From positions 48,978 through 112,977 of the forward strand of contig CAJAIA010000028.1 in assembly GCA_903939735.1 (NCBI GenBank): a DNA stretch of 64,000 nucleotides, in the 5' to 3' direction. Of this stretch, positions 22,699 to 62,849 are shown piece after piece. Numbering within the stretch: position 1 is the stretch's first letter; the number at the start of each line of letters is the position of its first letter. This DNA comes from an uncultured Ignavibacteria bacterium (lineage in GTDB: Bacteria; Bacteroidota; Ignavibacteria; Kapaibacteriales; Kapaibacteriaceae). Under the pieces are notes generated by a model, which made no database searches, had not been told where the DNA came from, and saw only the letters and a program-made list of their open reading frames with translations. The translations under genes were made by a program, and so were the position numbers.

Positions 22699-23318
22699 TG
22701 CCACGCCTTACGCTTATTCGTCACGGTGAATCACAATGGAATCTCGAGAATCGCTTCACGGGATGGGTCGATGTCGACCTTACACCGAAAGGCGAGCGTG
22801 AAGCAGCAGCGGCCGGACACGTCCTACGCGGCGTGCCTGTCGACGTACTGTTTACGTCCGTGCTCAAACGTGCGATGCGCACAGCAGAGATCGCATGCGG
22901 GGAAGCCGGCATTCACGACATTCCCGTTCACCGGGATGCCGCACTGAACGAGCGTCACTACGGCGATCTCCAGGGTTTGAACAAAGCGGAAACAGCAGCT
23001 TCCTACGGCGATGAGCAGGTACACGTATGGCGCAGATCGTACGATGTGCCACCTCCGAACGGTGAATCGCTTAAAGACACGCAGGCTCGCGTTGCACCGT
23101 ACTACCAGTCACAGATCGTGCCGCTTCTTCGGGCGGATCAGAATGTGCTGGTCGTTGCACACGGCAATTCACTTCGTTCCCTCGTCATGTTCGTTGAACA
23201 TCTCTCTCCAGAAGAAATTCTCAAGATCGAGATCGCCACTGGCGTTCCGATCACCTATGAACTCGACAAGGACCTTAACGTTGTTTCAAAGACCATTCTT
23301 ACGCCTACTGCTTCGTAG
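22698..23318 (+). CDS. gpmA: 2,3-bisphosphoglycerate-dependent phosphoglycerate mutase
   Basis: LIRHGESQWN...RFTGWVDVDLTPKGEREA histidine-phosphatase motifs. Confidence 0.88.
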   Translation: MPRLTLIRHGESQWNLENRFTGWVDVDLTPKGEREAAAAGHVLRGVPVDVLFTSVLKRAMRTAEIACGEAGIHDIPVHRDAALNERHYGDLQGLNKAETAASYGDEQVHVWRRSYDVPPPNGESLKDTQARVAPYYQSQIVPLLRADQNVLVVAHGNSLRSLVMFVEHLSPEEILKIEIATGVPITYELDKDLNVVSKTILTPTAS

Positions 23319-25002
23319 CGCTGCTGTTGCAGCAGTAGTGCTCGCAGGCTGGACGCACACCTCAGCCCAGACACAGTCACCGGTACTGCGTGCCATGCGC
23401 GCTGAAGTAGACCGCACGATGACAACGCTTGCGAAGACAACGCCAGCTCCGTACTTCCTCTCCTATGCGGTAACGGAAGTGTCGTCAACAGTGATCACCG
23501 CATCCATGGGTGCGATTGATATCGATGTTACGTCATCACGAAGAGTTCTTGATGTTGATCTTCGTGTTGGATCCTACGAACTCGACAATACGCGAAGCAT
23601 TCGCGGCGTAGCGTTTGAGATGGGACGTGGCACGCGTGGAGTTGAGATGCCCGCAGGGGATGATGAACGTGCTCTGCGCAGCGTGATTTGGTCGGCCACA
23701 GATAAGGCGTACTCGGCAGCAGCCGAACGTTTCGGCAAGGTCCTGACGAATCTGCAGGTTAAGGTGCGCGAGGAAGACTCCTCGGCGGATCTCTCTCGTG
23801 AGCAAGCCTACGTATCGATCACACCCCCACGGGCATTTGAGTACGACACTGCGATGTGGCGCGACCGTGTGCGCTCATTGAGTGCAATGTGTGCGCAGCA
23901 AGAGCATATTCTGAGCGGACGCGTGTCGTTCCAGACAGATCGTCTGGTAAAGTACATTGTGAACTCAGAGGGCACTACAATTCAGCTCTCCGAGCCAATC
24001 GTAAAGATGTTTGTCATCATCAAGGCGAAAGCTGACGATGGCATGAGTCTGCCGCTGTATGAGAGCTATTCGGCCTACGCAGCTGATCGGCTGCCGTCGA
24101 AGGCATCGATGGAGCAGGACGTGCGGAGGCTCATTGATCTTGCGCGACGGCTTCGTACCGCGCCATTGCTTGAGACCTATACCGGACCCGCCATTTTGTC
24201 GGGTCGTAGCGCCGGCGTGTTCTTCCACGAGATCTTTGGTCACCGCGTCGAAGGACATCGCCAGAAAGACGTCAACTCGAGTCAGACGTTTAAGCCGTTC
24301 CTCAACAAGCGCATTTTGCCTCCATTCATCAACGTGGTCTTCGATCCAACGATCACGTCCCTGCGCGGCAACGACATCGTCGGTGCGTTTTCATTCGACG
24401 ATGAAGGCATGCCGGGCAAACGCGTTGTCGCAGTCGACAGTGGCATCTTCAAGAGCTTCCTGATGTCACGATCACCAATCGACAGCTTCCCTGTCTCGAA
24501 TGGACACGGCCGACGTCAACCTGGATTCAAGGCAGTGTCGCGTCAGTCGAACCTCATCGTTGAAGCCACAACAACAGTCCCATACGACACGCTTCGTGCA
24601 ATGCTTCGTCGCGAGTGCATCGTGCAGAAGAAAGAGTTCGGCTTGCTGTTCGAAGACATACAAGGCGGCTTCACATTCACCGGACGCACTGTCCCGAATG
24701 CGTTTAACGTTCAGCCCCTTGTTGTCTACAAAGTATTCGCAGATGGACGTCCCGACGAACTCATTCGCGGCGTCGACCTCATCGGGACACCATTGACAAC
24801 GTTTAACAACATCGTCGCAGCAGCAGATGATCTTGGCGTCTTCAATGGCGTGTGTGGCGCTGAATCAGGTGGTGTACCTGTAAGCGCATGTTCTCCAAGT
24901 TTGCTTGTATCGACAATTGAAGTGCAGAAGAAGCAGAAATCACAAGCAAAACCACCAATTCTGCCTGATCCAACAGTACCATCAGCAGGGAGCCGACCAT
25001 GA
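23257..25002 (+). CDS. secreted TldD-like metallopeptidase (peptidase U62), HExxxH-containing
   Basis: Signal peptide (MNSTRTLTLFQRPFLRLLLRSAAVAAVVLAGWTHTSAQ, or TTG start at 23281); HEIFGHRVEGH matches the TldD HExxxH motif; ~580 aa; the 23011 ORF extension overlaps gpmA and is rejected. Confidence 0.72.
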   Translation: MNSTRTLTLFQRPFLRLLLRSAAVAAVVLAGWTHTSAQTQSPVLRAMRAEVDRTMTTLAKTTPAPYFLSYAVTEVSSTVITASMGAIDIDVTSSRRVLDVDLRVGSYELDNTRSIRGVAFEMGRGTRGVEMPAGDDERALRSVIWSATDKAYSAAAERFGKVLTNLQVKVREEDSSADLSREQAYVSITPPRAFEYDTAMWRDRVRSLSAMCAQQEHILSGRVSFQTDRLVKYIVNSEGTTIQLSEPIVKMFVIIKAKADDGMSLPLYESYSAYAADRLPSKASMEQDVRRLIDLARRLRTAPLLETYTGPAILSGRSAGVFFHEIFGHRVEGHRQKDVNSSQTFKPFLNKRILPPFINVVFDPTITSLRGNDIVGAFSFDDEGMPGKRVVAVDSGIFKSFLMSRSPIDSFPVSNGHGRRQPGFKAVSRQSNLIVEATTTVPYDTLRAMLRRECIVQKKEFGLLFEDIQGGFTFTGRTVPNAFNVQPLVVYKVFADGRPDELIRGVDLIGTPLTTFNNIVAAADDLGVFNGVCGAESGGVPVSACSPSLLVSTIEVQKKQKSQAKPPILPDPTVPSAGSRP

Positions 25003-26768
25003 ACCGACTTCTTGCGCTTGGCGTTGCACTTGTAACGCTCACGGTTTCATCGTTGGCACAGCAGCTACAGCGCGACGACATTCTCGCTGCCATGGAGGCA
25101 GAACTTCAGCGATCAATGCAGCAGCTATCGCTGGGCGATCTCGCACGACCTTACTACATCGAGTACATCCTCAACACGCGGAGAGCGACGACAGCACATG
25201 CTGTGCTTGGCACGATTGAAGATGTGGACTCTGGTACACGCGCAACAATTACAGTGCGCGTTCGCGTTGGCGGTCAGAAATTCGACAACACGAATTTCTT
25301 CGACGTCAGCCTCGGTTTTTTTGGGTCGAGTGACGACGAAGAGAGCTTCAAGAATCGTCTCATTCCGTTTGAGCTCTCTGCAGATGTGCTCCGACGTGAG
25401 CTATGGCTTGCGACTGATGCATGTTACAAGCAGGCTGTTGAGATCTACGCCAAGAAGGAGTCGACACTTAAGAATCGCCTTCGTCGCGACACCACGTGGG
25501 ACTTCTTCCTGATGCCTACTGGTGGAGAGCGTGTCGATGTGTCGCCATCACCGCAAATCCGTATCGACGATCTGCGTCAGCGCGTAGAGCGCCTCAGTGG
25601 CATCTTCCGCAGTTATCCAGCTATCTATCAATCGCGTGTTGGCATGGAGGTGATCCCGAAGGAGACCTACTACGTGAACTCCGAAGGTCGCCGCATGCAT
25701 AAAACCGAGAGCACGGTTGGCATCGAGGTGGTTGCAACCACGCAAGCGGATGATGGGATGCCCCTTGCACAGACCTATGCGGTGTACGGCACACAGATGA
25801 GCGACCTCCCAACGATCGACTCACTCGAGCGTGCAGTGCGCGCAGTTGCAGCGCGACTAGCAGCGCAGCGAACTGCACCAATCATCGAACCATATTCAGG
25901 ACCGGTCCTGTTTGAAGGACGAGCTGCAGGCGGCATAATCGGACAGTTCTTTGCGCCCAATCTTGTAGCGCAGCGCCCGCCCCTTTCCGAAGGAGGCTTC
26001 TCAACGAATGATCGTTCAATGGCGTTTCAGAACAAGATCGGCGCTCGCGTATTGCCGGAGTTCCTTACAGTTCGTGATCGGCCTAGCATGACTCGTCATG
26101 GATCACACTCGGTGTGTGGAGGCTACAGCATCGACGACGAAGCAACGCCTGCACAGGACGTGCTCCTGGTCGAGAACGGATATCTCCGAACACTTCTCTC
26201 GTCGAGGACCCCAACAAAGCGCATCAATGCTAGCAACGGACATCTACGGGGCGGCGGAACGATGTTTAGCGTCTTGGATCTTTCGTCGCGCGAACCGAAG
26301 CATACATTGAGTGCGCCAGATCTCAAGAAGCGTCTTCTGAAGCTCGTCAAGGATCGCGATCTTCCCTACGGAATTATCGTCCGTGCGACGATAGATCAGA
26401 ACCTCCTCTTTACGGGCATCATCCGACAGCTTGGAAGCGATCTTCCTGTGTCGCAAGGCGAGGGCAAGATTGGTCTGCTTGAAGCCTATCGCATCTATCC
26501 GGATGGTCGCGAAGAACTCATTCGCGGCGTCGAAGCCGCTGGAGTTTCTGCCGCATCATTCAAAGACATCATTGCAGTGTCGAAGACGCAGACGGCGCAT
26601 GCATTCCTTGCACCGAGTGTTGTGCCATCATTCATTAGCGGTGGCGCATCGTATCTGCTGTCGACGGTAATCACGCCAGACCTTCTGTTTGAGGATCTCG
26701 AAGTACGTCCGCTTGAAGGTGATATGCCGAAGCCGCCGGTCTTGACTAACCCCATCGCTGGTGAGTGA
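24999..26768 (+). CDS. secreted TldE/PmbA-like protein (peptidase U62 partner, no HExxxH)
   Basis: Signal peptide MNRLLALGVALVTLTVSSLAQ; same fold and paralogous blocks to the upstream gene (…YSGPVLFEGRAAGG…) but lacking the metal motif; 4-nt overlap with the TldD-like gene. Confidence 0.68.
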   Translation: MNRLLALGVALVTLTVSSLAQQLQRDDILAAMEAELQRSMQQLSLGDLARPYYIEYILNTRRATTAHAVLGTIEDVDSGTRATITVRVRVGGQKFDNTNFFDVSLGFFGSSDDEESFKNRLIPFELSADVLRRELWLATDACYKQAVEIYAKKESTLKNRLRRDTTWDFFLMPTGGERVDVSPSPQIRIDDLRQRVERLSGIFRSYPAIYQSRVGMEVIPKETYYVNSEGRRMHKTESTVGIEVVATTQADDGMPLAQTYAVYGTQMSDLPTIDSLERAVRAVAARLAAQRTAPIIEPYSGPVLFEGRAAGGIIGQFFAPNLVAQRPPLSEGGFSTNDRSMAFQNKIGARVLPEFLTVRDRPSMTRHGSHSVCGGYSIDDEATPAQDVLLVENGYLRTLLSSRTPTKRINASNGHLRGGGTMFSVLDLSSREPKHTLSAPDLKKRLLKLVKDRDLPYGIIVRATIDQNLLFTGIIRQLGSDLPVSQGEGKIGLLEAYRIYPDGREELIRGVEAAGVSAASFKDIIAVSKTQTAHAFLAPSVVPSFISGGASYLLSTVITPDLLFEDLEVRPLEGDMPKPPVLTNPIAGE

Positions 26769-29003
26769 TCACTCGAGGGTGTATCGCACGCCGATGTACA
26801 GCATGCGTGAATCGAGCTGACCCCACGCAAGTGAGGCGTCGAAGCGATACGTGTAGGGATCATCTGCACCGATGATTGGATCGCGCTGGATCATGTTTAG
26901 CGCATTCTCGATGCCGAGGTAAACGTCGAATCCTTCAAAGCGCCGAGTGAGCTGCGCATTTAGTCGCCACATTCCCGGGAACGTTGTAGCACGCGTGTCA
27001 ACGGCCATGTTTCCAGCCGTTGTTGGAAATCGTCCCGGCCCGTTCCAGGCCAACGTGACGTCGCCCTGCCACTGCATACCAGGTGTCGTATACGACACCG
27101 TCGTCAAGACGCGTGATCGACTTACGAGCGGACGTTGTTGCAACTGCCCACCGTAGGGCGCTTGAACATCAACCCATCGATAGGCCATCAGGACGTCAAG
27201 GCGGGGCATCGGAGAGAACAGTACCTGCGCCATGACATTTGTCGAGAAGCTCTCGCCACGCAGATTCGTCACCCAGAGTTCGCGCACAGAGCGGTCGTAA
27301 TCGACGTAGACCTGATTGGTGAAACGCGTGGTATAGACTTCCGCATCAAACGTGAATGGACGTCCGCCGAGCTCAAACGATGTTGTCATCGATGCTCCTA
27401 CGTTCCATGCATCCTCCGGCAGAAACGTTGGATCCATGATCACTTGTCGCGAATTGACATATGATCCAAGATTCTCCATGACCACATTCGCAACCCGCCA
27501 TCCGCGTCCAGCCGACACGCGAAGCGATGTCATGTCGGTGATCGACCACTTCGCATGAGCTCGCGGCACAAGACGTGTGCCATAGAGATTATGAGCGTCA
27601 GCTCGGAGTCCAGCAAGAACCGTCAGTGACGATGTTGGCTGCAACGTGAGCTCTGCATATGCACCAGGAACATGCTCCACACGAGCCATCGATCGCGCAT
27701 CGAGGCGCTCTTGTACATCGTCAAACATGTAGGAGAATCCTGCTACCAACTTCACTTCAGAAGTGAACGGTGCAGCGACGACGCCACGCACGTTGAGCGT
27801 GCGCTGCAAGCCCCGTGCAGAGCGTGTGCCGAATGCCGACGAGGCATCATGATACACACCAGCGACGACCAGCGAGATTCCACTACCCTCTTCCATTGAC
27901 TCGAAGGGGTCAAGCAGACCGAACTTGAGGAATCCATCAACACGACCAATCTCGGTTACCACATCGTAGGGACGCGCCCACGTTGAATCGTGTTGCTCAA
28001 ACATCGCGTTATGCACAATGCTCTGACCAGACACGTAGCGGTCCTGCAGGCCCCGTATGAAGAACTGCCACTCAACCTCATCATCGTTATACATCCACCG
28101 GTGGACGAGGTTGACTTGACGAAACGTTGGATTGTCGGCGAAGCCGTCATCGTTCTGATCCATCGCTTCGTCCATCACGCGTGCGTGCAGCATCGTCATG
28201 GTTGAGAGTTCATCCGTGAGTGTCTGCGCGCCATAGATGTTTGCCTCAAATCGCTGCATTGTGTTCGCGTAGGCATTCACATACAACGTCGGACTCGACA
28301 TTGGGTTATGCATGCAGAGATTGATCTGGCCCGTGATCGACTCATAGCCATTCGTAACCGTAGAGCTTCCTTTTGCGATGCTGATCGATTCCAAGAACGG
28401 ACCAGGCACATGATCGAGTCCGAATGGGACTTCGAGCGCACGCGGCAGCGGCACGGCCTCGATCAGCATCTGTGTGTAGGTTCCCCGCAGACCCAACAGC
28501 TGCACTTGCTTTGCCCCTGTCACTGCATCGGCAAACGATACTTCAACCGACGGGTTCTTCTCGAAGGACTCCGCCAGTGAGCAGCACGCAGCCTTTGCTA
28601 GGTCCTTCTTCGAGATCACTTCCGTCTTGATTGGTGCTCGCGTAATCGACGACTCTTCGGCCTCGACGACAACCTCCGACGACGACGACGGATCGAGCTC
28701 GATCGTCACGGAATCTGCACGCAGATCGACAACGACATACCGCGTTCGATACGACACAAAGCGGATCTCCAACGTGTCGGTTTCATTACTTCTCGTAATC
28801 GTGAAACCTCCACTAGCGTCCTTTACAACAGCACCCAGTTGGGTGCTCTTCCAACGCACGGTTGCGCCGCGAAGCGGTTGGAGAGATCCATCAGGTTGGC
28901 GTCCGAGGACTCTGCCCTTGAGATCATCAAGGGCGAAAAGATTTGTGGGCAGCATCACCACGACAGCCATGAGTGCCATCAGCACCCGAAGGGAGGTTTG
29001 CAT
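26769..29003 (-). CDS. TonB-dependent outer-membrane receptor with N-terminal carboxypeptidase-regulatory-like domain
   Basis: Signal peptide MQTSLRVLMALMAVVVML (internal Met of the 29039 ORF); CarbopepD_reg-like segment; plug domain and long beta-barrel with Gly/aromatic-rich strands. Confidence 0.8.
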   Translation of the reverse strand: MQTSLRVLMALMAVVVMLPTNLFALDDLKGRVLGRQPDGSLQPLRGATVRWKSTQLGAVVKDASGGFTITRSNETDTLEIRFVSYRTRYVVVDLRADSVTIELDPSSSSEVVVEAEESSITRAPIKTEVISKKDLAKAACCSLAESFEKNPSVEVSFADAVTGAKQVQLLGLRGTYTQMLIEAVPLPRALEVPFGLDHVPGPFLESISIAKGSSTVTNGYESITGQINLCMHNPMSSPTLYVNAYANTMQRFEANIYGAQTLTDELSTMTMLHARVMDEAMDQNDDGFADNPTFRQVNLVHRWMYNDDEVEWQFFIRGLQDRYVSGQSIVHNAMFEQHDSTWARPYDVVTEIGRVDGFLKFGLLDPFESMEEGSGISLVVAGVYHDASSAFGTRSARGLQRTLNVRGVVAAPFTSEVKLVAGFSYMFDDVQERLDARSMARVEHVPGAYAELTLQPTSSLTVLAGLRADAHNLYGTRLVPRAHAKWSITDMTSLRVSAGRGWRVANVVMENLGSYVNSRQVIMDPTFLPEDAWNVGASMTTSFELGGRPFTFDAEVYTTRFTNQVYVDYDRSVRELWVTNLRGESFSTNVMAQVLFSPMPRLDVLMAYRWVDVQAPYGGQLQQRPLVSRSRVLTTVSYTTPGMQWQGDVTLAWNGPGRFPTTAGNMAVDTRATTFPGMWRLNAQLTRRFEGFDVYLGIENALNMIQRDPIIGADDPYTYRFDASLAWGQLDSRMLYIGVRYTLE

Positions 29004-29054
29004 ACAAGTAGTGCCTCGACGTGAAGAAACAATCAGCATTCACGATGAGCACTC

Positions 29055-29456
29055 TTATAGTCGTCGAACTCCTAGCTGCGCCCGCTCAGGGGGCGAGTGG
29101 GTTATGCCTTCGGCAATGAGCCCGGCTCGCGCCTGCGAGACCTGCACTGCTTCAAACAGCCGAACGACGTCGATATCAGCAAAGGGCTCTGCACATTCGG
29201 GAGCATGGGAGGATGCGATCGCATCATCCAGTGCCCCAACATATGCGAACTCCACTGTCAGATCAACGTCATCAGCAGAACATGGCTCTTCTTCACAACA
29301 TGGGTCGGTATCCGGACAGCACGATATCGGCTCGCATTCTGTCTGCAGGGATACACGCTGTCCGCAGCAATATTGAGCCACAACGGGACCGCCCGCAACC
29401 ATCAGAAGCTGCAGGACCAGGAGAATTGGGGCAAGAATGTAGCGGTGCGCTGCCAT
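29055..29456 (-). CDS. small secreted acidic cysteine-rich protein (putative metal-binding)
   Basis: Internal Met MAAHRYILAPILLVLQLLMVAGGPVVAQ, then YCCGQRVSLQTECEPISCCPDTDPCCEEEPC (9 Cys in 35 aa); 16 bp upstream of the TonB receptor gene on the same strand. Confidence 0.55.
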   Translation of the reverse strand: MAAHRYILAPILLVLQLLMVAGGPVVAQYCCGQRVSLQTECEPISCCPDTDPCCEEEPCSADDVDLTVEFAYVGALDDAIASSHAPECAEPFADIDVVRLFEAVQVSQARAGLIAEGITHSPPERAQLGVRRL

Positions 29457-29465
29457 GAGCACGAA

Positions 29466-29480
29466 AAATAATGATAATTC
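29466..29480. promoter_or_regulatory. Fur-box-like site (AAATAATGATAATTC) upstream of the Cys-rich protein/TonB receptor operon
   Basis: 11/11 match to the ATAATGATAAT core of the classical Fur box GATAATGATAATCATTATC; two nATwAT hexamers; sits 10-25 nt upstream of the minus-strand start codon. Confidence 0.45.
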
Positions 29481-29571
29481 TCGGTCGAACCGCATATTTC
29501 CTGCTTGTCTATGCCCCAGCATTTTCCTACGTTCGTCCATACGTGTTCTCGCTATCGCAACGGAGGGGCTT

Positions 29572-29802
29572 ATGTCCGACGTGAAGCACTACAGCAACGG
29601 AGAGATAACGATCGTCTGGAAATCAGAGAAGTGTGCGCATTCGGCCAATTGTTTTCGAAATCTGCCGGTCGTCTTCAATCCGCGCGTTAAGCCCTGGATT
29701 CAGCCGCATAATGCCGTTACAGGGGAGATCGTGCAGGTCGTGCAAGGCTGCCCGAGTGGGGCGTTAACGATCCTCGACGGGGATGTACCGCAGCCTGAAT
29801 AG
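29572..29802 (+). CDS. (4Fe-4S)-binding protein, DUF1271 family
   Basis: MSDVKHYSNGEITIVWKSEKCAHSANCFRNLPVVFNPRVKPWIQPHNA...GCPSGAL matches the remembered DUF1271 pattern YSNGEITV.W...KC.H...C...LP.VFNP..KPWI....CPSGAL. Confidence 0.75.
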   Translation: MSDVKHYSNGEITIVWKSEKCAHSANCFRNLPVVFNPRVKPWIQPHNAVTGEIVQVVQGCPSGALTILDGDVPQPE

Positions 29803-29867
29803 CGTAACTTTTTCACAGTTACGGATTCATAGTTCCTCGCAACCGATCAGTCACCTATCTTTGCCCC

Positions 29868-30293
29868 ATGATTCGCCGCCTAGCCATCCTCGCTGTCCTT
29901 GTGTGCACCACGGTCGTCGCCTACGGCGTCCAGGTGACCTTGCAGTACTTTAATGCGAAGTCGAATGGCACCTCAATCTCGCTTGAATGGAAGTCGACAG
30001 CAGAGTCAAACCTGGTGCAATACGAGATTGAACGTGCAGGCGAAGACAATCAGTTCCGGTACGTCGCAACACTCCAAGCTCGCGGTAGCAATACGGTGTA
30101 CTCCTATCGTGACGACGAAGCATTCGGCAAGGGCGATGGCAACGACGGTTCAGTTGCACGCAACTACTTCACCTACCGCCTGAAGATGGTCACACCTGAC
30201 CGCTCGGCTTCGTACTCGAACTCCATTGGCGTTACCCATAACGTTAGCGGCATCAAGCGTACGTGGGGCATGATCAAGGAAATGTTCCGATAA
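29868..30293 (+). CDS. secreted hypothetical protein (fibronectin-III-like beta-sandwich?)
   Basis: Signal peptide MIRRLAILAVLVCTTVVAYG; ISLEWKSTAESNLVQYEIER is fn3-like; 141 aa. Confidence 0.5.
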   Translation: MIRRLAILAVLVCTTVVAYGVQVTLQYFNAKSNGTSISLEWKSTAESNLVQYEIERAGEDNQFRYVATLQARGSNTVYSYRDDEAFGKGDGNDGSVARNYFTYRLKMVTPDRSASYSNSIGVTHNVSGIKRTWGMIKEMFR

Positions 30294-30303
30294 GGAACGT
30301 CCT

Positions 30304-31929
30304 GTGACCGACTACGACCTCAGACAAATCTGTTCGCGAAGCGGAGCAATCCTCTTCGCGATTCTTGTTTTTCACCAGGCATGTGTTGGTCAGGACATCG
30401 ACCACCGCTGTGGCTATTCAGATCGCTCAAGCACCGAACTACGCTCGAAGATCTCCGAGGGTGTGCAGCAGTTGCGGCCATCACTCCCCCGCTATGCCGA
30501 CGATGAGCAGGGTCGGTTCCGCGTACATTACACGATTGATGGCCCCGATGCCGTCCCAGTGCTCGATAACAACCTCGACGGCGTGCCAGACTACGTTGAG
30601 GCGTGCCTGGCGGCACTTGATCACGCGTGGCGCGTCGAAGTGGACACGCTCGGGTATCTACCCCCACCGAGCGACATGGGTGTCGGTGGAAGCAACGCAC
30701 TGGATGTCTATGTCCGCGATCTCTCGAAGGCTGGCCCTGGCGGCTCGAGTTACTACGGCCTAACCTCTCTGGATGTACGGCTACAGTCGACCCCCATCGA
30801 GACGTACACCACATGGCTTGAAGTAGATAACGACTTTTCTATGTCGGATCGGGACGCGAGTGGCAATGCATCATTTGCCACCTTTGGTGAAGACGCACTT
30901 CGCGTGACATGTGCGCACGAGTTCCACCACACGATTCAGAGTGGTCGCTACGGCGTGGCTGGTATGAACCGCAGCCTCTATGAGTTAACGTCCACATGGA
31001 TGGAGATTCGATGCTGGCCTAACATTCGCGACTGGGCGGCCTACACGACACGACTGCTTCTGACTCCAGAAGCGTGGCCATTTTCGAGCGAGTCTGCAAA
31101 CACAGGCTATGTCTGGGGTTGGTTTGGCAACGCTCTCTCGGCGGCCCATCCCAACATCCTTCGTACGATGTGGGAGCTGATTGCAACGGACATGCGTACG
31201 ACGGCAGCCCTGGTGGAAGCATGCAAGAGGCACAACGCAACATTGAGTGGCATCTTCTGTTCTTCGCTGCAGTGGCTCTATCGCACGGGATCGCGTGGAG
31301 CAGGCAACCCGTTGTTGCCTGCTGCAGAACTCCTGCCGGAGATTCGGTTCTTCTCGGATCAACCCGTCGTGGCTCCGACCGCAACGGAGATCGGACGACT
31401 TCTCGGATTCGAGGTACGGGCATTCCGCTTCTCTGTGCCGTCGTCCTCGTCACGTCCGCCTGTGAGCGTCGGCGTGGTCGTTTGCGATGCTGACGAAGTT
31501 GGATATGCCAATCAAGGGTCTGGACCTGATGGACGATATCGCATCGAACTCACGAATGCTCCGAGTGGCTCCGATATGCGCATCGACGGAACGCAATGGG
31601 GACTCCGTGTGGAGTCAGCGTACTGCTCGCATGTCGAGGGGGCACAGACGATTTCGCTGAGCGGACCCTATCCACAGCCGCTTTCATTGCAGCGCACGCG
31701 ACGCGTGTACATACCAGTAACGAACGAGCCGATTGGTACGCGCATCACACTTTCGCTGCTAACGCTCAGTGGCGCAGCGCTGCGTTCGTCGAACACGACA
31801 GTGATACTCGATGATGATCGCATCGTTGCAACCTTTGACCTCGAGGGCGAACTCCCTCCCGGCACGTATCTTGTCCGCAGTGAGTCGTCCACTTCGACCA
31901 CGCTTCACAAGGTGATTCTTCAACGATGA
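30304..31929 (+). CDS. secreted HExxH protein (putative zinc metallopeptidase)
   Basis: Signal peptide; CAHEFHHTIQSG contains HExxH; 541 aa; ATGA overlap with the downstream ABC ATPase. Confidence 0.55.
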   Translation: MTDYDLRQICSRSGAILFAILVFHQACVGQDIDHRCGYSDRSSTELRSKISEGVQQLRPSLPRYADDEQGRFRVHYTIDGPDAVPVLDNNLDGVPDYVEACLAALDHAWRVEVDTLGYLPPPSDMGVGGSNALDVYVRDLSKAGPGGSSYYGLTSLDVRLQSTPIETYTTWLEVDNDFSMSDRDASGNASFATFGEDALRVTCAHEFHHTIQSGRYGVAGMNRSLYELTSTWMEIRCWPNIRDWAAYTTRLLLTPEAWPFSSESANTGYVWGWFGNALSAAHPNILRTMWELIATDMRTTAALVEACKRHNATLSGIFCSSLQWLYRTGSRGAGNPLLPAAELLPEIRFFSDQPVVAPTATEIGRLLGFEVRAFRFSVPSSSSRPPVSVGVVVCDADEVGYANQGSGPDGRYRIELTNAPSGSDMRIDGTQWGLRVESAYCSHVEGAQTISLSGPYPQPLSLQRTRRVYIPVTNEPIGTRITLSLLTLSGAALRSSNTTVILDDDRIVATFDLEGELPPGTYLVRSESSTSTTLHKVILQR

Positions 31930-32546
31930 TGACGCTTGAACTCTCGTCTATCGCGAAAACCTACAACGGACGTCGTGTGCTGCACGACGTAAGCTTCTCG
32001 GCATCACCGGGTGATGTCGTAGGCATACTCGGTGCAAACGGAAGTGGAAAGTCCACACTCGTCAAGGTGATCGCAGGTGTTATCCGAGCCGACAGCGGAA
32101 CAGTTACATGCATACACGATGGCCGGGAACTTGACGCTCAAGCGCGACGCGCATCGTGTGGCTTTGTAGCGCCCTACTTGGCACTCTATGAAGAGTTCAC
32201 TCCGCATGAGCACCTGCAACTCCATGCGAACCTCCACGGCGCACCATGCACACCGGAGCACATTGCAGCCACATTGGCGTTGGTGCAGATCGACCATCGT
32301 GCACATGATCGCATCCATACCTTCTCCAGTGGCATGAAACAACGCGTTGCGTTGGCCTGCGCTGTGTTCCTTACACCACCTCTCTTACTCCTTGACGAAC
32401 CTGGCTCGACACTCGATGCCGCTGGTCGCGATGTTTGCGAAGCAATCGTGCGTGACCAAACACGTCGCGGTGGAATCACAATCTTGGCTACAAACGACGA
32501 TCGCGAGGCTCATCTATGTTCACGCACCTATCGCATTACCTCCTAG
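31926..32546 (+). CDS. ABC transporter ATP-binding protein (CcmA-like, orphan, no adjacent permease)
   Basis: Walker A GANGSGKST, signature FSSGMKQRVAL, Walker B LLLLDEPGSTLD; 206 aa. Confidence 0.85.
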   Translation: MMTLELSSIAKTYNGRRVLHDVSFSASPGDVVGILGANGSGKSTLVKVIAGVIRADSGTVTCIHDGRELDAQARRASCGFVAPYLALYEEFTPHEHLQLHANLHGAPCTPEHIAATLALVQIDHRAHDRIHTFSSGMKQRVALACAVFLTPPLLLLDEPGSTLDAAGRDVCEAIVRDQTRRGGITILATNDDREAHLCSRTYRITS

Positions 32547-61335: not shown

Positions 61336-62777
61336 CCGACGCTACCTTCGAGAGAAATTGCAAGGAGTTTTTGCGCTTCCACGGCGAATTCCATGGGAAG
61401 CTGATTGAGGACTTCACGAGCGTAGCCGTTCACGATCAGCGCCACCGCTGCCTCGGTATCAATGCCACGTTGATTGCAGTAGAAGAGGATGTCCTCGCCG
61501 ATCTTCGATGTTGTGGCTTCATGCTCTACCGTCGCCGAAGCATTGGCGATCTCGAGATACGGGAACGTATGCGCTCCACACGCATCACCGATCAAGAGTG
61601 AATCGCACTGTGAAAAGTTGCGAGCCCCTTCAGAGACTTTCAACACTTTCACGAGACCACGATAACTGTTCTGTGACGTACCCGCTGAGATGCCCTTCGA
61701 AACGATACGACTCCGCGTGTGTTTACCGACGTGCAGCATCTTGGTGCCGGTATCGGCCTGCTGCATGTTGTTTGTGACCGCGACCGAGTAAAACTCACCG
61801 ATGGAATAATCACCCTTGAGAACAACGCTCGGATACTTCCATGTGATCGCCGATCCCGTCTCGACTTGTGTCCACGAGATCTTGCTGTGTGCACCTTCGC
61901 AGATACCGCGCTTGGTAACAAAGTTGTAGATGCCACCATTCCCTTGCTTGTCGCCCGGGAACCAGTTCTGCACGGTAGAGTACTTGATTTCAGCACGTGT
62001 GTGCGCAACCAGTTCGACAACTGCCGCGTGCAGCTGATTCTCATCGCGCTGCGGTGCGGTACATCCTTCGAGGTAGCTCACATAGCTACCTTCATCGGCG
62101 ATGATCAACGTACGCTCAAACTGTCCGGTATTACGCGCGTTAATGCGGAAATACGTGCTGAGCTCGATCGGACAGCGGACACCCTTGGGGATGTAGACGA
62201 ACGAGCCGTCACTGAACACGGCAGAGTTCAATGCAGAATAGAAGTTGTCGCTCGGAGGAACCACAGTTCCGATGTACTGGCGCACGAGCTCTGGATGATC
62301 GCGCAGGGCTTCGCTGATCGGACAGAAGATGATGCCAAGCTCCTTGAGCTTGTCTTGAAATGTGGTCTTTACACTCACACTATCAAGCACAACATCAACA
62401 GCAACACCCGCAAGCATCTTCTGCTCTTCAAGCGGGATACCAAGCTTTGCGAACGTTGCGAGCAACTCAGGGTCGACTTCATCGAGCGAAGCTAGACCTT
62501 CCTTTTTCTTCGGAGCTGCCCAGTAAATGATGTCCTGAAAGTCGATCTTCGGATAGGAGACATTCGGCCACGTCGGTTCCTTCATCGATTGCCAATGACG
62601 GAACGCTTTGAGACGCCACTCAAGCATCCACTCCGGTTCTTCCTTCTTCGCAGAAATAAACCTCACGACGTCCTCACTGAGGCCCTTCGGGAGTAACTCC
62701 TGCTCGATATCAGTCGTGAAGCCGTACTTGTACTCGCTTCCTACGACGTCGTCAAGAATTGATTGTTCTGAATTCAT
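61332..62777 (-). CDS. sufB: Fe-S cluster assembly protein SufB
   Basis: 481 aa; highly conserved SufB blocks (YSTVQNW; [11 protein letters not shown]). Confidence 0.95.
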
Positions 62778-62849
62778 GGCGCAAATATACGACTGATTTA
62801 GTCCTGATTTGTCGAGACTCTTCGTTTACTAGCGCCCACGCAACGACAA

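Follow-up and report, generated by a model that had tools for sequence, protein, structure and literature searches.

A 64,000-nucleotide stretch of contig CAJAIA010000028.1, from an uncultured Ignavibacteria bacterium (hereafter, the window), carries on its minus strand a small open reading frame (ORF) followed by the gene of a TonB-dependent receptor. Judging from its variation among relatives, the small ORF is a real, fast-evolving gene limited to Kapabacteria-like genomes. By its sequence features and position, the locus is best described as a lineage-specific addition to the CutF/CruR-like leader ORFs with cysteine and proline motifs, related to HYC_CC_PP and DUF8199. Our preferred reading, to which we give about an even chance, is that the small ORF acts in cis as a nascent-chain sensor of a soft metal, probably copper, and gates expression of the receptor. 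The initial annotation of this DNA had placed a Fur-box-like operator in front of the ORF; the AT-rich element in question is, most likely, best read as a Bacteroidota-type −7 promoter box and not as an iron operator. Coordinates are collected in Table 1.

Conservation and predicted properties of the small ORF

The small ORF begins with the ATG at 29456 and ends, after 133 codons, at 29055. Its product is acidic and cysteine-rich, as first described; the pI is 4.28, and there are nine Cys and 20 Asp plus Glu, with YCCGQ...CEPISCCPDTDPCCEEEPC. Eleven homologues were found, at 45–98% identity, and synonymous codon variation was detected at 35 of the 37 invariant amino-acid columns. Of the first 36 alignment columns, 21 do not vary in amino acid, and synonymous variation is seen in 20 of those 21. 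The ratio of nonsynonymous to synonymous divergence (dN/dS) is 0.02–0.18 for residues 2–35, 0.15–0.61 in the Cys region and 0.15–0.57 in the middle region. It is the combination of synonymous changes at invariant residues and low N-terminal dN/dS that leads us to consider the small ORF a real gene. Because the minus-strand frame is the conserved one, with synonymous changes, the earlier rejection of the antisense ORFs was correct.

Divergence is nevertheless fast: in a pair of genomes whose receptors are 83% identical, the small proteins share only 45% identity. When one genome per species was scanned, the small ORF was present in four genomes, labelled Candidatus Kapaibacterium or Melioribacter; the latter label is probably wrong. 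Three metagenome-assembled genome (MAG) records titled ‘Melioribacter roseus P3M-2’ or ‘uncultured Melioribacter sp.’ (L011, L012 and L013) carry a Kapabacteria-type locus, and their taxon labels look unreliable. A profile search with the family alignment against 1.84 billion representative proteins found no match beyond the family itself.

The best-conserved parts of the protein are the hydrophobic N-terminus with its QYCCGQRV motif, the Cys pairs, and a tail of the form PP(D/E)xxxxLGVxRL. Seven cysteines are invariant (C30, C31, C41, C46, C47, C53 and C54) and C59 is nearly so; their spacings are CC, Cx4C and Cx5C, and CxxC is absent. Conservation is highest in the N-terminal segment, which has a Kyte–Doolittle 19-mer maximum of 2.23. 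There, a positive n-region (R5) precedes the hydrophobic residues 6–27, and a VVA-Q junction resembles a signal-peptidase site; a cleaved signal and an uncleaved anchor cannot be told apart. Structure prediction with AlphaFold2 (AF2) returned no usable fold: the mean predicted local distance difference test score (pLDDT) was 49.8, with helices at residues 3–22, 76–79 (short) and 97–115 (low confidence). Hence, the small protein is predicted to be largely unstructured.

Proposed relationship to HYC_CC_PP, DUF8199 and the CutF/CruR class of leader ORFs

The window protein has no Pfam or NCBIfam match at E≤10. Five Kapabacteria family members match only HYC_CC_PP (NF047658), over the same region, with E=0.006–0.4 and 11–17 bits; the bit scores include 17.0 for P0132, 16.9 for P0010, 15.6 for P0011 and 11.1 for P0009, none of which has a Pfam match. 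The curated cut-off of NF047658 is 28 bits, and a named member, P0167, scores 37.8 bits. An hhalign comparison of alignment A1 with alignment A4, made of bona fide members, gave a weak match (E=0.0067, probability 5.7%, 60 columns), in a register that aligns the hydrophobic segment, [Q/H]xC, CC and CC in step.

The features behind the family name were then compared one by one. In the motif Q28-Y29-C30 of the window protein, the Cys and its position are kept while the His of HYC is replaced by Gln; P0132 carries HYCC in place of QYCC, and [H/Q]xC occupies residues 28–30 in almost all of 122 small homologues. Vicinal CC motifs are present and invariant (C30C31, C46C47, C53C54), and so is the PP near the C-terminus (P122, P123).

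Position adds to this picture. The window and all Kapabacteria loci have a small ORF directly 5' of the orthologous receptor gene, and so do four more distant loci. In L015, an Ignavibacteria MAG (receptor identity 67%), the upstream ORF has 119 amino acids and reads ...IHYCGGE..CC..CC... before ending in EPPDRSKLCLFRI and a stop. In L017, a Chlorobiota MAG (54%), it reads ...VHLCGGE..CC..CC... and ends in GPPDCSLLCVLLI and a stop. In L018 and L019, from Dyadobacter and another Bacteroidota genome (38–39%), the upstream genes encode DUF8199 (PF26622) proteins, several of them named HYC_CC_PP by NCBI. These positional equivalents share one plan: a hydrophobic N-terminus, [H/Q]xC at residues 28–30, CC pairs and a conserved C-terminal tail.

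What the window protein has in common with HYC_CC_PP/DUF8199 is thus its size, the hydrophobic N-terminus, [H/Q]xC at 28–30, the CC pairs and a site directly 5' of an orthologous receptor of the CarboxypepD_reg type; the PP near the C-terminus is shared with the Ignavibacteria and Chlorobiota forms. It differs in its below-threshold score, in the Gln for His and in the doubled first Cys (YCC). We therefore file the small ORF as a putative divergent, sub-threshold relative of the family, on architecture and position more than on sequence statistics. The family itself has neither an assigned function nor a literature: a search for papers on HYC_CC_PP or DUF8199 found none.

A second comparison is with CutF of Rhodobacter capsulatus, which is exported co-translationally (PMC9973294; bioRxiv 10.1101/2025.02.05.636593). 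CutF-like proteins have been defined by a length of fewer than 150 amino acids, by PP within 15 residues of the C-terminus, by a signal peptide at the N-terminus and by a gene on the same strand that follows at less than 1000 nt; the list comprises 5,334 proteins, 19% of them from Bacteroidota, with TonB-like genes among the commonest neighbours (PMC9973294). The window ORF has 133 residues, P122–P123, a receptor gene 51 nt downstream (15 nt to the first ATG) and a signal-like hydrophobic N-terminus, for which a cleaved signal and an anchor are not separable. Taking the N-terminal signal from the hydrophobic segment, the ORF appears to fit this operational definition. Shared with CutF are a Cys motif that would be exposed on the far side of the membrane with the Pro motif still inside the ribosome, and a stem-loop over the initiation region of the downstream gene. 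In CutF, however, the motif is CxxxC instead of CC pairs and the downstream gene encodes a multicopper oxidase, not a transporter. The window hairpin, moreover, covers the AUG directly, with no evident Shine-Dalgarno sequence, and has the upstream stop codon as its partner.

The third comparison is with CruR (Bp2923, DUF2946), an upstream ORF that responds to copper and heads the crtA/bfrG transporter operon in Bordetella pertussis (PMC9426467). Besides an export signal, CruR carries CxxC and, at its C-terminus, the arrest motif RAPP. Copper is sensed by the nascent chain, which governs Rho-dependent termination ahead of the transporter gene; the mature protein has little structure and probably a short life (PMC9426467). 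Both CruR and the window ORF are first genes followed by a TonB-dependent transporter gene. They also have in common an N-terminal segment of export-signal or N-in/C-out type, a conserved Cys motif, a conserved C-terminal motif with Pro whose distance from the stop is fixed, a poorly predicted structure and a structured spacer ahead of the transporter gene. The differences are also clear. The window protein has no PF11162 (DUF2946) match at E≤10. In CruR, CxxC and RAPP are about 45 residues apart, with RAPP about 3 residues before the stop, whereas the window protein has CC pairs, PP(D/E) at 10 residues and its last Cys 63 residues before PP. The CruR spacer has 162 nt and a Rho-dependent terminator, whereas the window spacer has 51 nt and a hairpin that pairs stop and AUG. 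The N-terminal segment is dispensable in CruR and extremely conserved in the window protein. Finally, CruR is found in Proteobacteria, and the window pair in the Fibrobacteres–Chlorobi–Bacteroidetes (FCB) group.

The C-terminal tail and the stop/start hairpin

In every Kapabacteria member, and likewise in the forms of L015 and L017, exactly 10 residues separate PP(D/E) from the stop; the window tail has SPPE, with P122–P123 of 133 residues. PPD and PPE are reportedly among the stronger stalling tripeptides (Peil 2013; Starosta 2014). Conservation of the tail extends to the codons. In eight of nine lineages the PP codons are CCC-CCT, within the invariant CCCCCUGA (29085–29093, minus strand), and these are the two rarest Pro codons in the window genes (0.15 and 0.19). 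Synonymous divergence (pS) is 0.07–0.29 in the last 15 codons, compared with 0.32–0.71 elsewhere in the ORF. Candidate causes of this conservation are tRNA- or codon-specific pausing, or RNA structure. A frameshift at the invariant CCCCCUGA was also considered; it gives no sensible product and was rejected. Diproline tripeptides are established as the shortest ribosome-stalling sequences (PMC6544042).

The last conserved Cys lies 63 residues before PP, a gap that would be roughly enough for the Cys cluster to clear the ribosome tunnel and the translocon as PP is decoded.

The tail is followed by a spacer whose length depends on the receptor start. The initial annotation, which correctly placed a TonB-dependent receptor on the same strand 3' of the small ORF, set the distance at 16 bp. 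The first in-frame ATG (29039) does lie 15 nt past the stop. However, it is out of frame in other lineages, and we rejected it as the receptor start for that reason; the start common to all nine related lineages is the ATG at 29003, which gives a spacer of 51 nt.

With RNAalifold, this 51-nt spacer folds into a conserved hairpin. It is closed by a helix between the final codon plus stop of the small ORF (UAUAAGA) and the start of the receptor gene (..UAUG), and its inner helix is CGUGAA/UUCACG. Hairpin cells are 88–91% paired, compared with 26–60% when the partners are slid. The covariation score beats all but 6 of 500 shuffles with alignment A6 (7 sequences) and all but 32 of 500 with alignment A7 (9 sequences). 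Two separate lineages, L009 and L007, have changed the stop from UAA to UAG, and in both a U→C change at −2 of the AUG matches it. In partition-function calculations, the AUG is paired with the stop region at a probability of 0.48–0.97 (0.04–0.60 in shuffled spacers). A search for an intrinsic terminator in the window spacer found none.

Hairpins that span the spacer are also present in nearly all Bacteroidota loci, many with an internal GC stem and a U-run, which is terminator-like. In many of the L022–L077 spacers, the GC-rich stem is nested in an outer AU-rich helix (UGAUU..UUGAUU / AAUCAA..AAUCA) that runs from the stop codon of the upstream gene to the AUG of the receptor. To judge from sequence, this nested structure looks like an attenuator.

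The receptor and its plug Cys pair

The receptor has an N-terminal CarboxypepD_reg-like domain (CarbopepD_reg_2, PF13715), a plug (PF07715, E=2e-8) and a 22-strand-type barrel (PF00593, E=2e-16), and 572 homologues were found. In the plug, the vicinal Cys motif KAACC(S/N)L(A/S)ESFE is invariant in 11 orthologues of 37–83% identity (alignment A5), which range from Kapabacteria to Dyadobacter and Siphonobacter. A probable role of this receptor is the handling of copper-type metals.

Structure and database searches were generic in their outcome. The AF2 model gave a barrel with pLDDT around 80 and a modelled N-terminal domain; the plug (residues 108–227) stayed below 50, and the Cys pair was not placed. 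Foldseek with the barrel found Cir, ZnuD, BtuB and OprC at E around 1e-17 and 10–13% identity, that is, generic transporter matches, and a PDB sequence search with the receptor gave matches of the same generic kind only. Because of this, we infer no substrate from the receptor. The comparison with the copper importers OprC, which has a CxxxM-HxM site, and CrtA (PMC8610252, PMC12914433) rests on their being TonB-dependent barrels preceded by a small Cys-containing leader ORF and on a sulfur ligand motif in or near the plug. The structural identity is only 10–13%, however; the window receptor adds the N-terminal CarboxypepD_reg domain, and its plug Cys-Cys takes the place of the OprC site.

Heavy-metal context of the gene pair in distant relatives

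The neighbourhood of the pair in distant relatives is informative about the metal. Among 45 Bacteroidota metagenome loci with enough downstream sequence, the receptor gene directly follows HYC_CC_PP in 31, and lies 1.5–4 kb downstream in 4 more. An AraC-type regulator with an N-terminal HMA-like MVCDRC domain stands beside the module in 20 of the 25 loci of at least 6 kb. Further neighbours in Bacteroidota are HMA, HMBD, HMA-MauE, PepSY_TM, DUF2911, YncE-like propeller and DUF3347 proteins, and multicopper oxidase. The idea of a metal-acquisition pair, which the initial annotation had put forward, is thus supported by a conserved, co-oriented gene pair and by its comparative metal context. The iron part of the idea is not: HMA, HMBD, multicopper oxidase, DUF3347 and PepSY_TM point to a copper-type or thiophilic metal, and on this comparative basis the metal is probably copper or another thiophilic metal rather than iron.

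The module that recurs in Bacteroidota (L018, L019, L022–L077) can be written as [HMA]-HYC_CC_PP-receptor-AraC with HMA-like MVCDRC-[HMBD]-[HMA]; variants insert HMA-MauE, PepSY_TM, DUF2911, a YncE-like propeller, DUF3347 or a multicopper oxidase. From its gene content, it looks like an undescribed type of copper or soft-metal locus. Literature searches on HMA/TonB in Bacteroidota found nothing on this module, and a search on DUF3347 with TonB-dependent and copper found no paper that mentions DUF3347.

One locus keeps the receptor alone. L016 (4936–5001) has a receptor orthologue at 59% identity without the small ORF, hence the small ORF would be dispensable for receptor function. In L016, 64 nt separate the receptor gene from a divergent gene of 141 amino acids; the Fer4_19 gene that neighbours the small ORF in the window (Table 1) is absent too.

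A possible nascent-chain sensor or stable metal partner

The sensor reading can be laid out as a series of steps. Transcription from a Bacteroidota-type −7 promoter would give a leaderless or near-leaderless messenger RNA (mRNA), and the nascent chain would be directed to the membrane by its hydrophobic N-terminus. By the time PP(D/E) and the tail are reached, the acidic cluster of vicinal cysteines (residues 30–59) would already be outside the ribosome and translocon, as it lies at least 63 residues ahead of the motif. A thiophilic metal, most likely copper, would then bind the exposed cysteines and alter the dwell of the ribosome on the tail or at the stop. Ribosome occupancy at the stop would in turn decide whether the receptor AUG is accessible, because the stop is base-paired with that AUG in the conserved hairpin. 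The sequence data establish a real and conserved gene, a pairing with the receptor that holds across phyla, a heavy-metal setting in the Bacteroidota relatives, and the motif layout, hairpin conservation and low synonymous change of the tail. How the protein is exported, which metal it senses, whether the ribosome stalls and in which direction the receptor is regulated are the parts of the scheme that we infer.

Several observations weigh against the scheme, and they can be summarized as follows:

(i). The hairpin is not exceptional in a single sequence (z-score −0.96), and its covariation is modest (32 of 500 shuffles, 9 sequences). In addition, PP lies 30 nt upstream, and a ribosome pausing there would not extend into the hairpin. 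For that reason, the pause may instead occur at termination, with PP in the tunnel.

(ii). The N-terminal segment is conserved far beyond the need of an export signal, and the corresponding segment is dispensable in CruR. The middle-region dN/dS of 0.15–0.57, which is not near 1, suggests that there is constraint on the mature protein.

(iii). Homology to HYC_CC_PP is sub-threshold, with no match of the window protein itself and an hhalign probability of 5.7%; a DUF2946 match, CxxC and RAPP are likewise missing from the window protein.

(iv). No HMA, multicopper oxidase or other copper genes were found in the window, and consequently the assignment of the metal rests on distant relatives. The Bacteroidota loci, for their part, encode a dedicated AraC regulator, so that control by a leader ORF is not required there.

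(v). Nascent-chain metal sensing is known experimentally in Proteobacteria only, and no case is known in the FCB group.

(vi). The four Cys pairs, taken together with the Cys pair of the receptor plug, fit a thiol-relay partner equally well.

The last point leads to a serious alternative explanation, in which the small protein would be stable and Cys-rich, anchored in the membrane or located in the periplasm, and would serve the receptor as chaperone or thiol relay by exchanging a soft metal with the plug Cys-Cys. This is close to the metal-chaperone idea of the initial annotation, and it may coexist with a regulatory role; on its own, we regard it as possible but somewhat unlikely. It would account for the strong purifying selection on the hydrophobic segment and QYCCGQRV (dN/dS 0.02–0.18), for the invariant vicinal Cys pairs of the small protein and the invariant Cys-Cys pair of the plug, and for a middle-region dN/dS below 1 (0.15–0.57); the HMA and HMBD proteins of the Bacteroidota modules are also in its favor. 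However, AF2 finds no fold (pLDDT 49.8), the small protein has 45% overall identity where the receptor has 83%, and the L016 receptor does without it. The fixed distance from PP to the stop, the conservation of the tail codons and the hairpin between stop and AUG are not predicted by a stable partner. Moreover, both characterised analogues act in cis and do not persist as proteins: CutF is short-lived, and CruR probably so.

Another proposal of the initial annotation, that the small protein is a secreted, metallophore-like ligand for the receptor, is disfavored by several features: a protein predicted to be largely unstructured (pLDDT 49.8), a conserved export or anchor segment, the Cys pairs, a PP tail at a fixed distance and agreement with the CutF-like definition. 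A specific version of this proposal is that the ORF encodes the precursor of a ribosomally synthesized and post-translationally modified peptide (RiPP), a methanobactin-like metallophore that is processed by TldD/PmbA, secreted and re-imported by the receptor. The layout has some resemblance to such a system, as a conserved N-terminal ‘leader’ is followed by a Cys-rich acidic core, a TonB-dependent receptor adjoins and a convergent TldD/PmbA pair is nearby. No modification enzymes adjoin the small ORF, however, in the window or in the related loci examined; TldD/PmbA adjoin as part of general synteny, and the Bacteroidota modules do not have them there; and the C-terminal tail, which a RiPP precursor would discard, is conserved at both the protein and the codon level. 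We consider a RiPP precursor very unlikely.

The AT-rich element upstream of the small ORF

The minus strand 5' of the small ORF reads GAATTATCATTATTTTTCGTGCTC-ATG, and its reverse complement holds the 15-mer AAATAATGATAATTC. The 15-mer is present at 29466–29480 (plus strand), just 5' of the minus-strand ORF, as the initial annotation had it. Its reading as the core of a classical Fur box, by contrast, found no support. The best register matches 13 of 19 positions of the Escherichia coli consensus GATAATGATAATCATTATC. Strand-sites with at least 13/19 number 15 in the window, at about ten positions, compared with 7.4 ± 3.4 in Markov shuffles, and most of them fall within genes. The exact 12-mer core has a single copy in the window; with up to two mismatches there are 3, and 2.19 are expected.

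Nine orthologous upstream regions were aligned to compare the promoters. The Fur-like string is exact in the window only; the closest relative differs from it by one change, and the seven other lineages have no more than a degenerate version. What is common to the nine lineages is only the −7 box and a GA(A/T)TT stretch. The conserved promoter core is CATAT(A/T)TTTG, a TAnnTTTG box that lies always 6–8 nt 5' of the start codon, and a perfect TAnnTTTG is found at the aligned position in L001, L005, L007, L078 and L079. The window has 11 TAnnTTTG sites, of which 7 fall in the 150 nt 5' of a same-strand gene start (0.78 expected). Conservation at 6–8 nt from the start and enrichment before gene starts are the reasons for reading the AT-rich element as a −7 box. 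With the box 6 nt before the ATG, the mRNA of the small ORF is probably leaderless or near-leaderless. Two perfect TAnnTTTG boxes lie 4 nt before starts elsewhere in the window (29856–29863, plus strand, for the gene at 29868; 62782–62789, minus strand, for the gene at 62777), and boxes of this kind suggest that leaderless mRNAs are common in this genome.

The resemblance to a Fur box (GATAATGATAATCATTATC) comes from two adjacent GATAAT-like hexamers that overlap the promoter; one of them, GATAAT at 29473–29478, also scores as a sigma-70 −10 hexamer on the plus strand. Unlike a classical box, the element lacks a third hexamer and dyad symmetry, and it is neither conserved nor above chance. The Fur box at 29466–29480 was ruled out by its score, by its background frequency and by its non-conservation. 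The initial annotation had itself named an AT-rich element that is merely the −7 promoter box as an outcome contrary to its claim, and this is the most likely reading here.

A Fur-repressed iron-acquisition operon, with AAATAATGATAATTC as an operator overlapping the promoter, was nonetheless weighed as an explanation of the locus. Two tandem GATAAT-like hexamers do overlap the promoter, where a repressor would bind, the 12-mer core has no second exact copy in the window, and the divergent gene encodes an Fe-S protein. However, a match of 13/19 is shared by about ten equally good positions in the window (7.4 ± 3.4 strand-sites expected), and the element is lost in seven of nine orthologous promoters that keep the −7 box. 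Moreover, the receptor obtains only generic scores against siderophore and haem receptor models, and related modules have HMA-type AraC regulators amid genes of copper type, not of iron type. An operon of this kind is therefore very unlikely.

Neighbouring genes and intergenic region

The small ORF and the Fer4_19 gene are divergent and have a 115-bp intergenic region in common; the start of the Fer4_19 gene is kept in all relatives. A block of about 30 nt in this region (29504–29537) is nearly invariant in relatives (ACGAACGTAGG.AAATGC.G.GGC...TGTCAAG). On the plus strand it has a TTGACA-like hexamer, with TACGTT 17 nt later. From its conservation and position, the block may be the Fer4_19 promoter or a site for a shared regulator. 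An Rfam scan of 26000–30500 found no RNA family, and on that ground the conserved 5' region was rejected as a riboswitch or RNA element standing in place of a gene.

Table 1. Features of the small ORF–receptor locus, with positions in the window.
Feature	Position	Strand	Basis or remark
Fur-box-like 15-mer AAATAATGATAATTC	29466-29480	+	Named by the initial annotation; judged to be no Fur operator
−7 promoter box TATTTTTC, imperfect TAnnTTTG	29463-29470	-	6 nt 5' of the small ORF ATG
Small ORF, 133 aa, divergent HYC_CC_PP/CutF-like, proposed metal-sensing leader	29055-29456	-	Homologues and synonymous variation
N-terminal hydrophobic export/anchor segment, residues 6-27 YILAPILLVLQLLMVAGGPVVA	29376-29441	-	Hydrophobicity, AF2 helix, conservation
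Cys cluster, residues 30-59 (C30C31, C41, C46C47, C53C54, C59), acidic context	29280-29369	-	Alignment
C-terminal tail SPPERAQLGVRRL and stop, candidate ribosome-arrest segment	29055-29093	-	Invariant PP(D/E)
Spacer hairpin, small-ORF stop with receptor start	29001-29059	-	RNAalifold
TonB-dependent receptor, 744 aa	26769-29003	-	Pfam PF13715, PF07715, PF00593
Receptor plug vicinal Cys pair C140-C141	28581-28586	-	Receptor alignment
Divergent Fer4_19 gene (divergent 4Fe-4S mono-cluster)	29572-29802	+	Pfam PF06902, E=1.1e-21

Beyond the Fer4_19 gene, the interval 29868–32546 (plus strand) encodes, in all relatives, a protein of 141 amino acids of unknown family, a putative HExxH metalloprotease of the MXAN_6640 family (NF045524, E=3.4e-42) and an ABC ATPase. 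On the other side, a tandem pair of TldD/PmbA-like peptidase genes (23011–26768, plus strand) is convergent with the receptor gene; the second gene of the pair, and possibly both, has a signal-peptide-like hydrophobic N-terminus. Kapabacteria, Ignavibacteria and Chlorobiota relatives keep this pair in synteny. Since all close relatives have the same gene order throughout the neighbourhood, synteny among them says little. Fer4_19, TldD/PmbA and the MXAN_6640 protease were rejected as functional partners: their association reflects general collinearity in close relatives and is absent from the Bacteroidota modules.

Significance

An attractive speculation, which we offer only tentatively and consider rather unlikely as a whole, combines the two roles discussed above: the leader and the plug Cys-Cys receptor may form an unrecognised outer-membrane uptake system for soft, copper-type metals in the FCB group, in which the leader would be both a nascent-chain sensor and a membrane-anchored thiol-relay partner, with periplasmic metal being read through export-coupled stalling at PP(D/E), 10 codons (one ribosome footprint) before the AUG-paired stop. 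If this were true, it would be a new mechanistic variant of arrest-peptide control, in bacteria without Shine-Dalgarno-led initiation.

For annotation, the consequence is that the small ORF should not be called a Fur-regulated secreted protein. Outer-membrane import of copper-type metals is poorly known in Gram-negative bacteria, with OprC, CrtA and the methanobactin receptors as the few characterised cases. The locus described here would tie HYC_CC_PP/DUF8199 and a widespread family of receptors with a plug Cys-Cys to the CruR/CutF regulatory class, and that class would thereby extend to Kapabacteria, Ignavibacteria and Bacteroidota.

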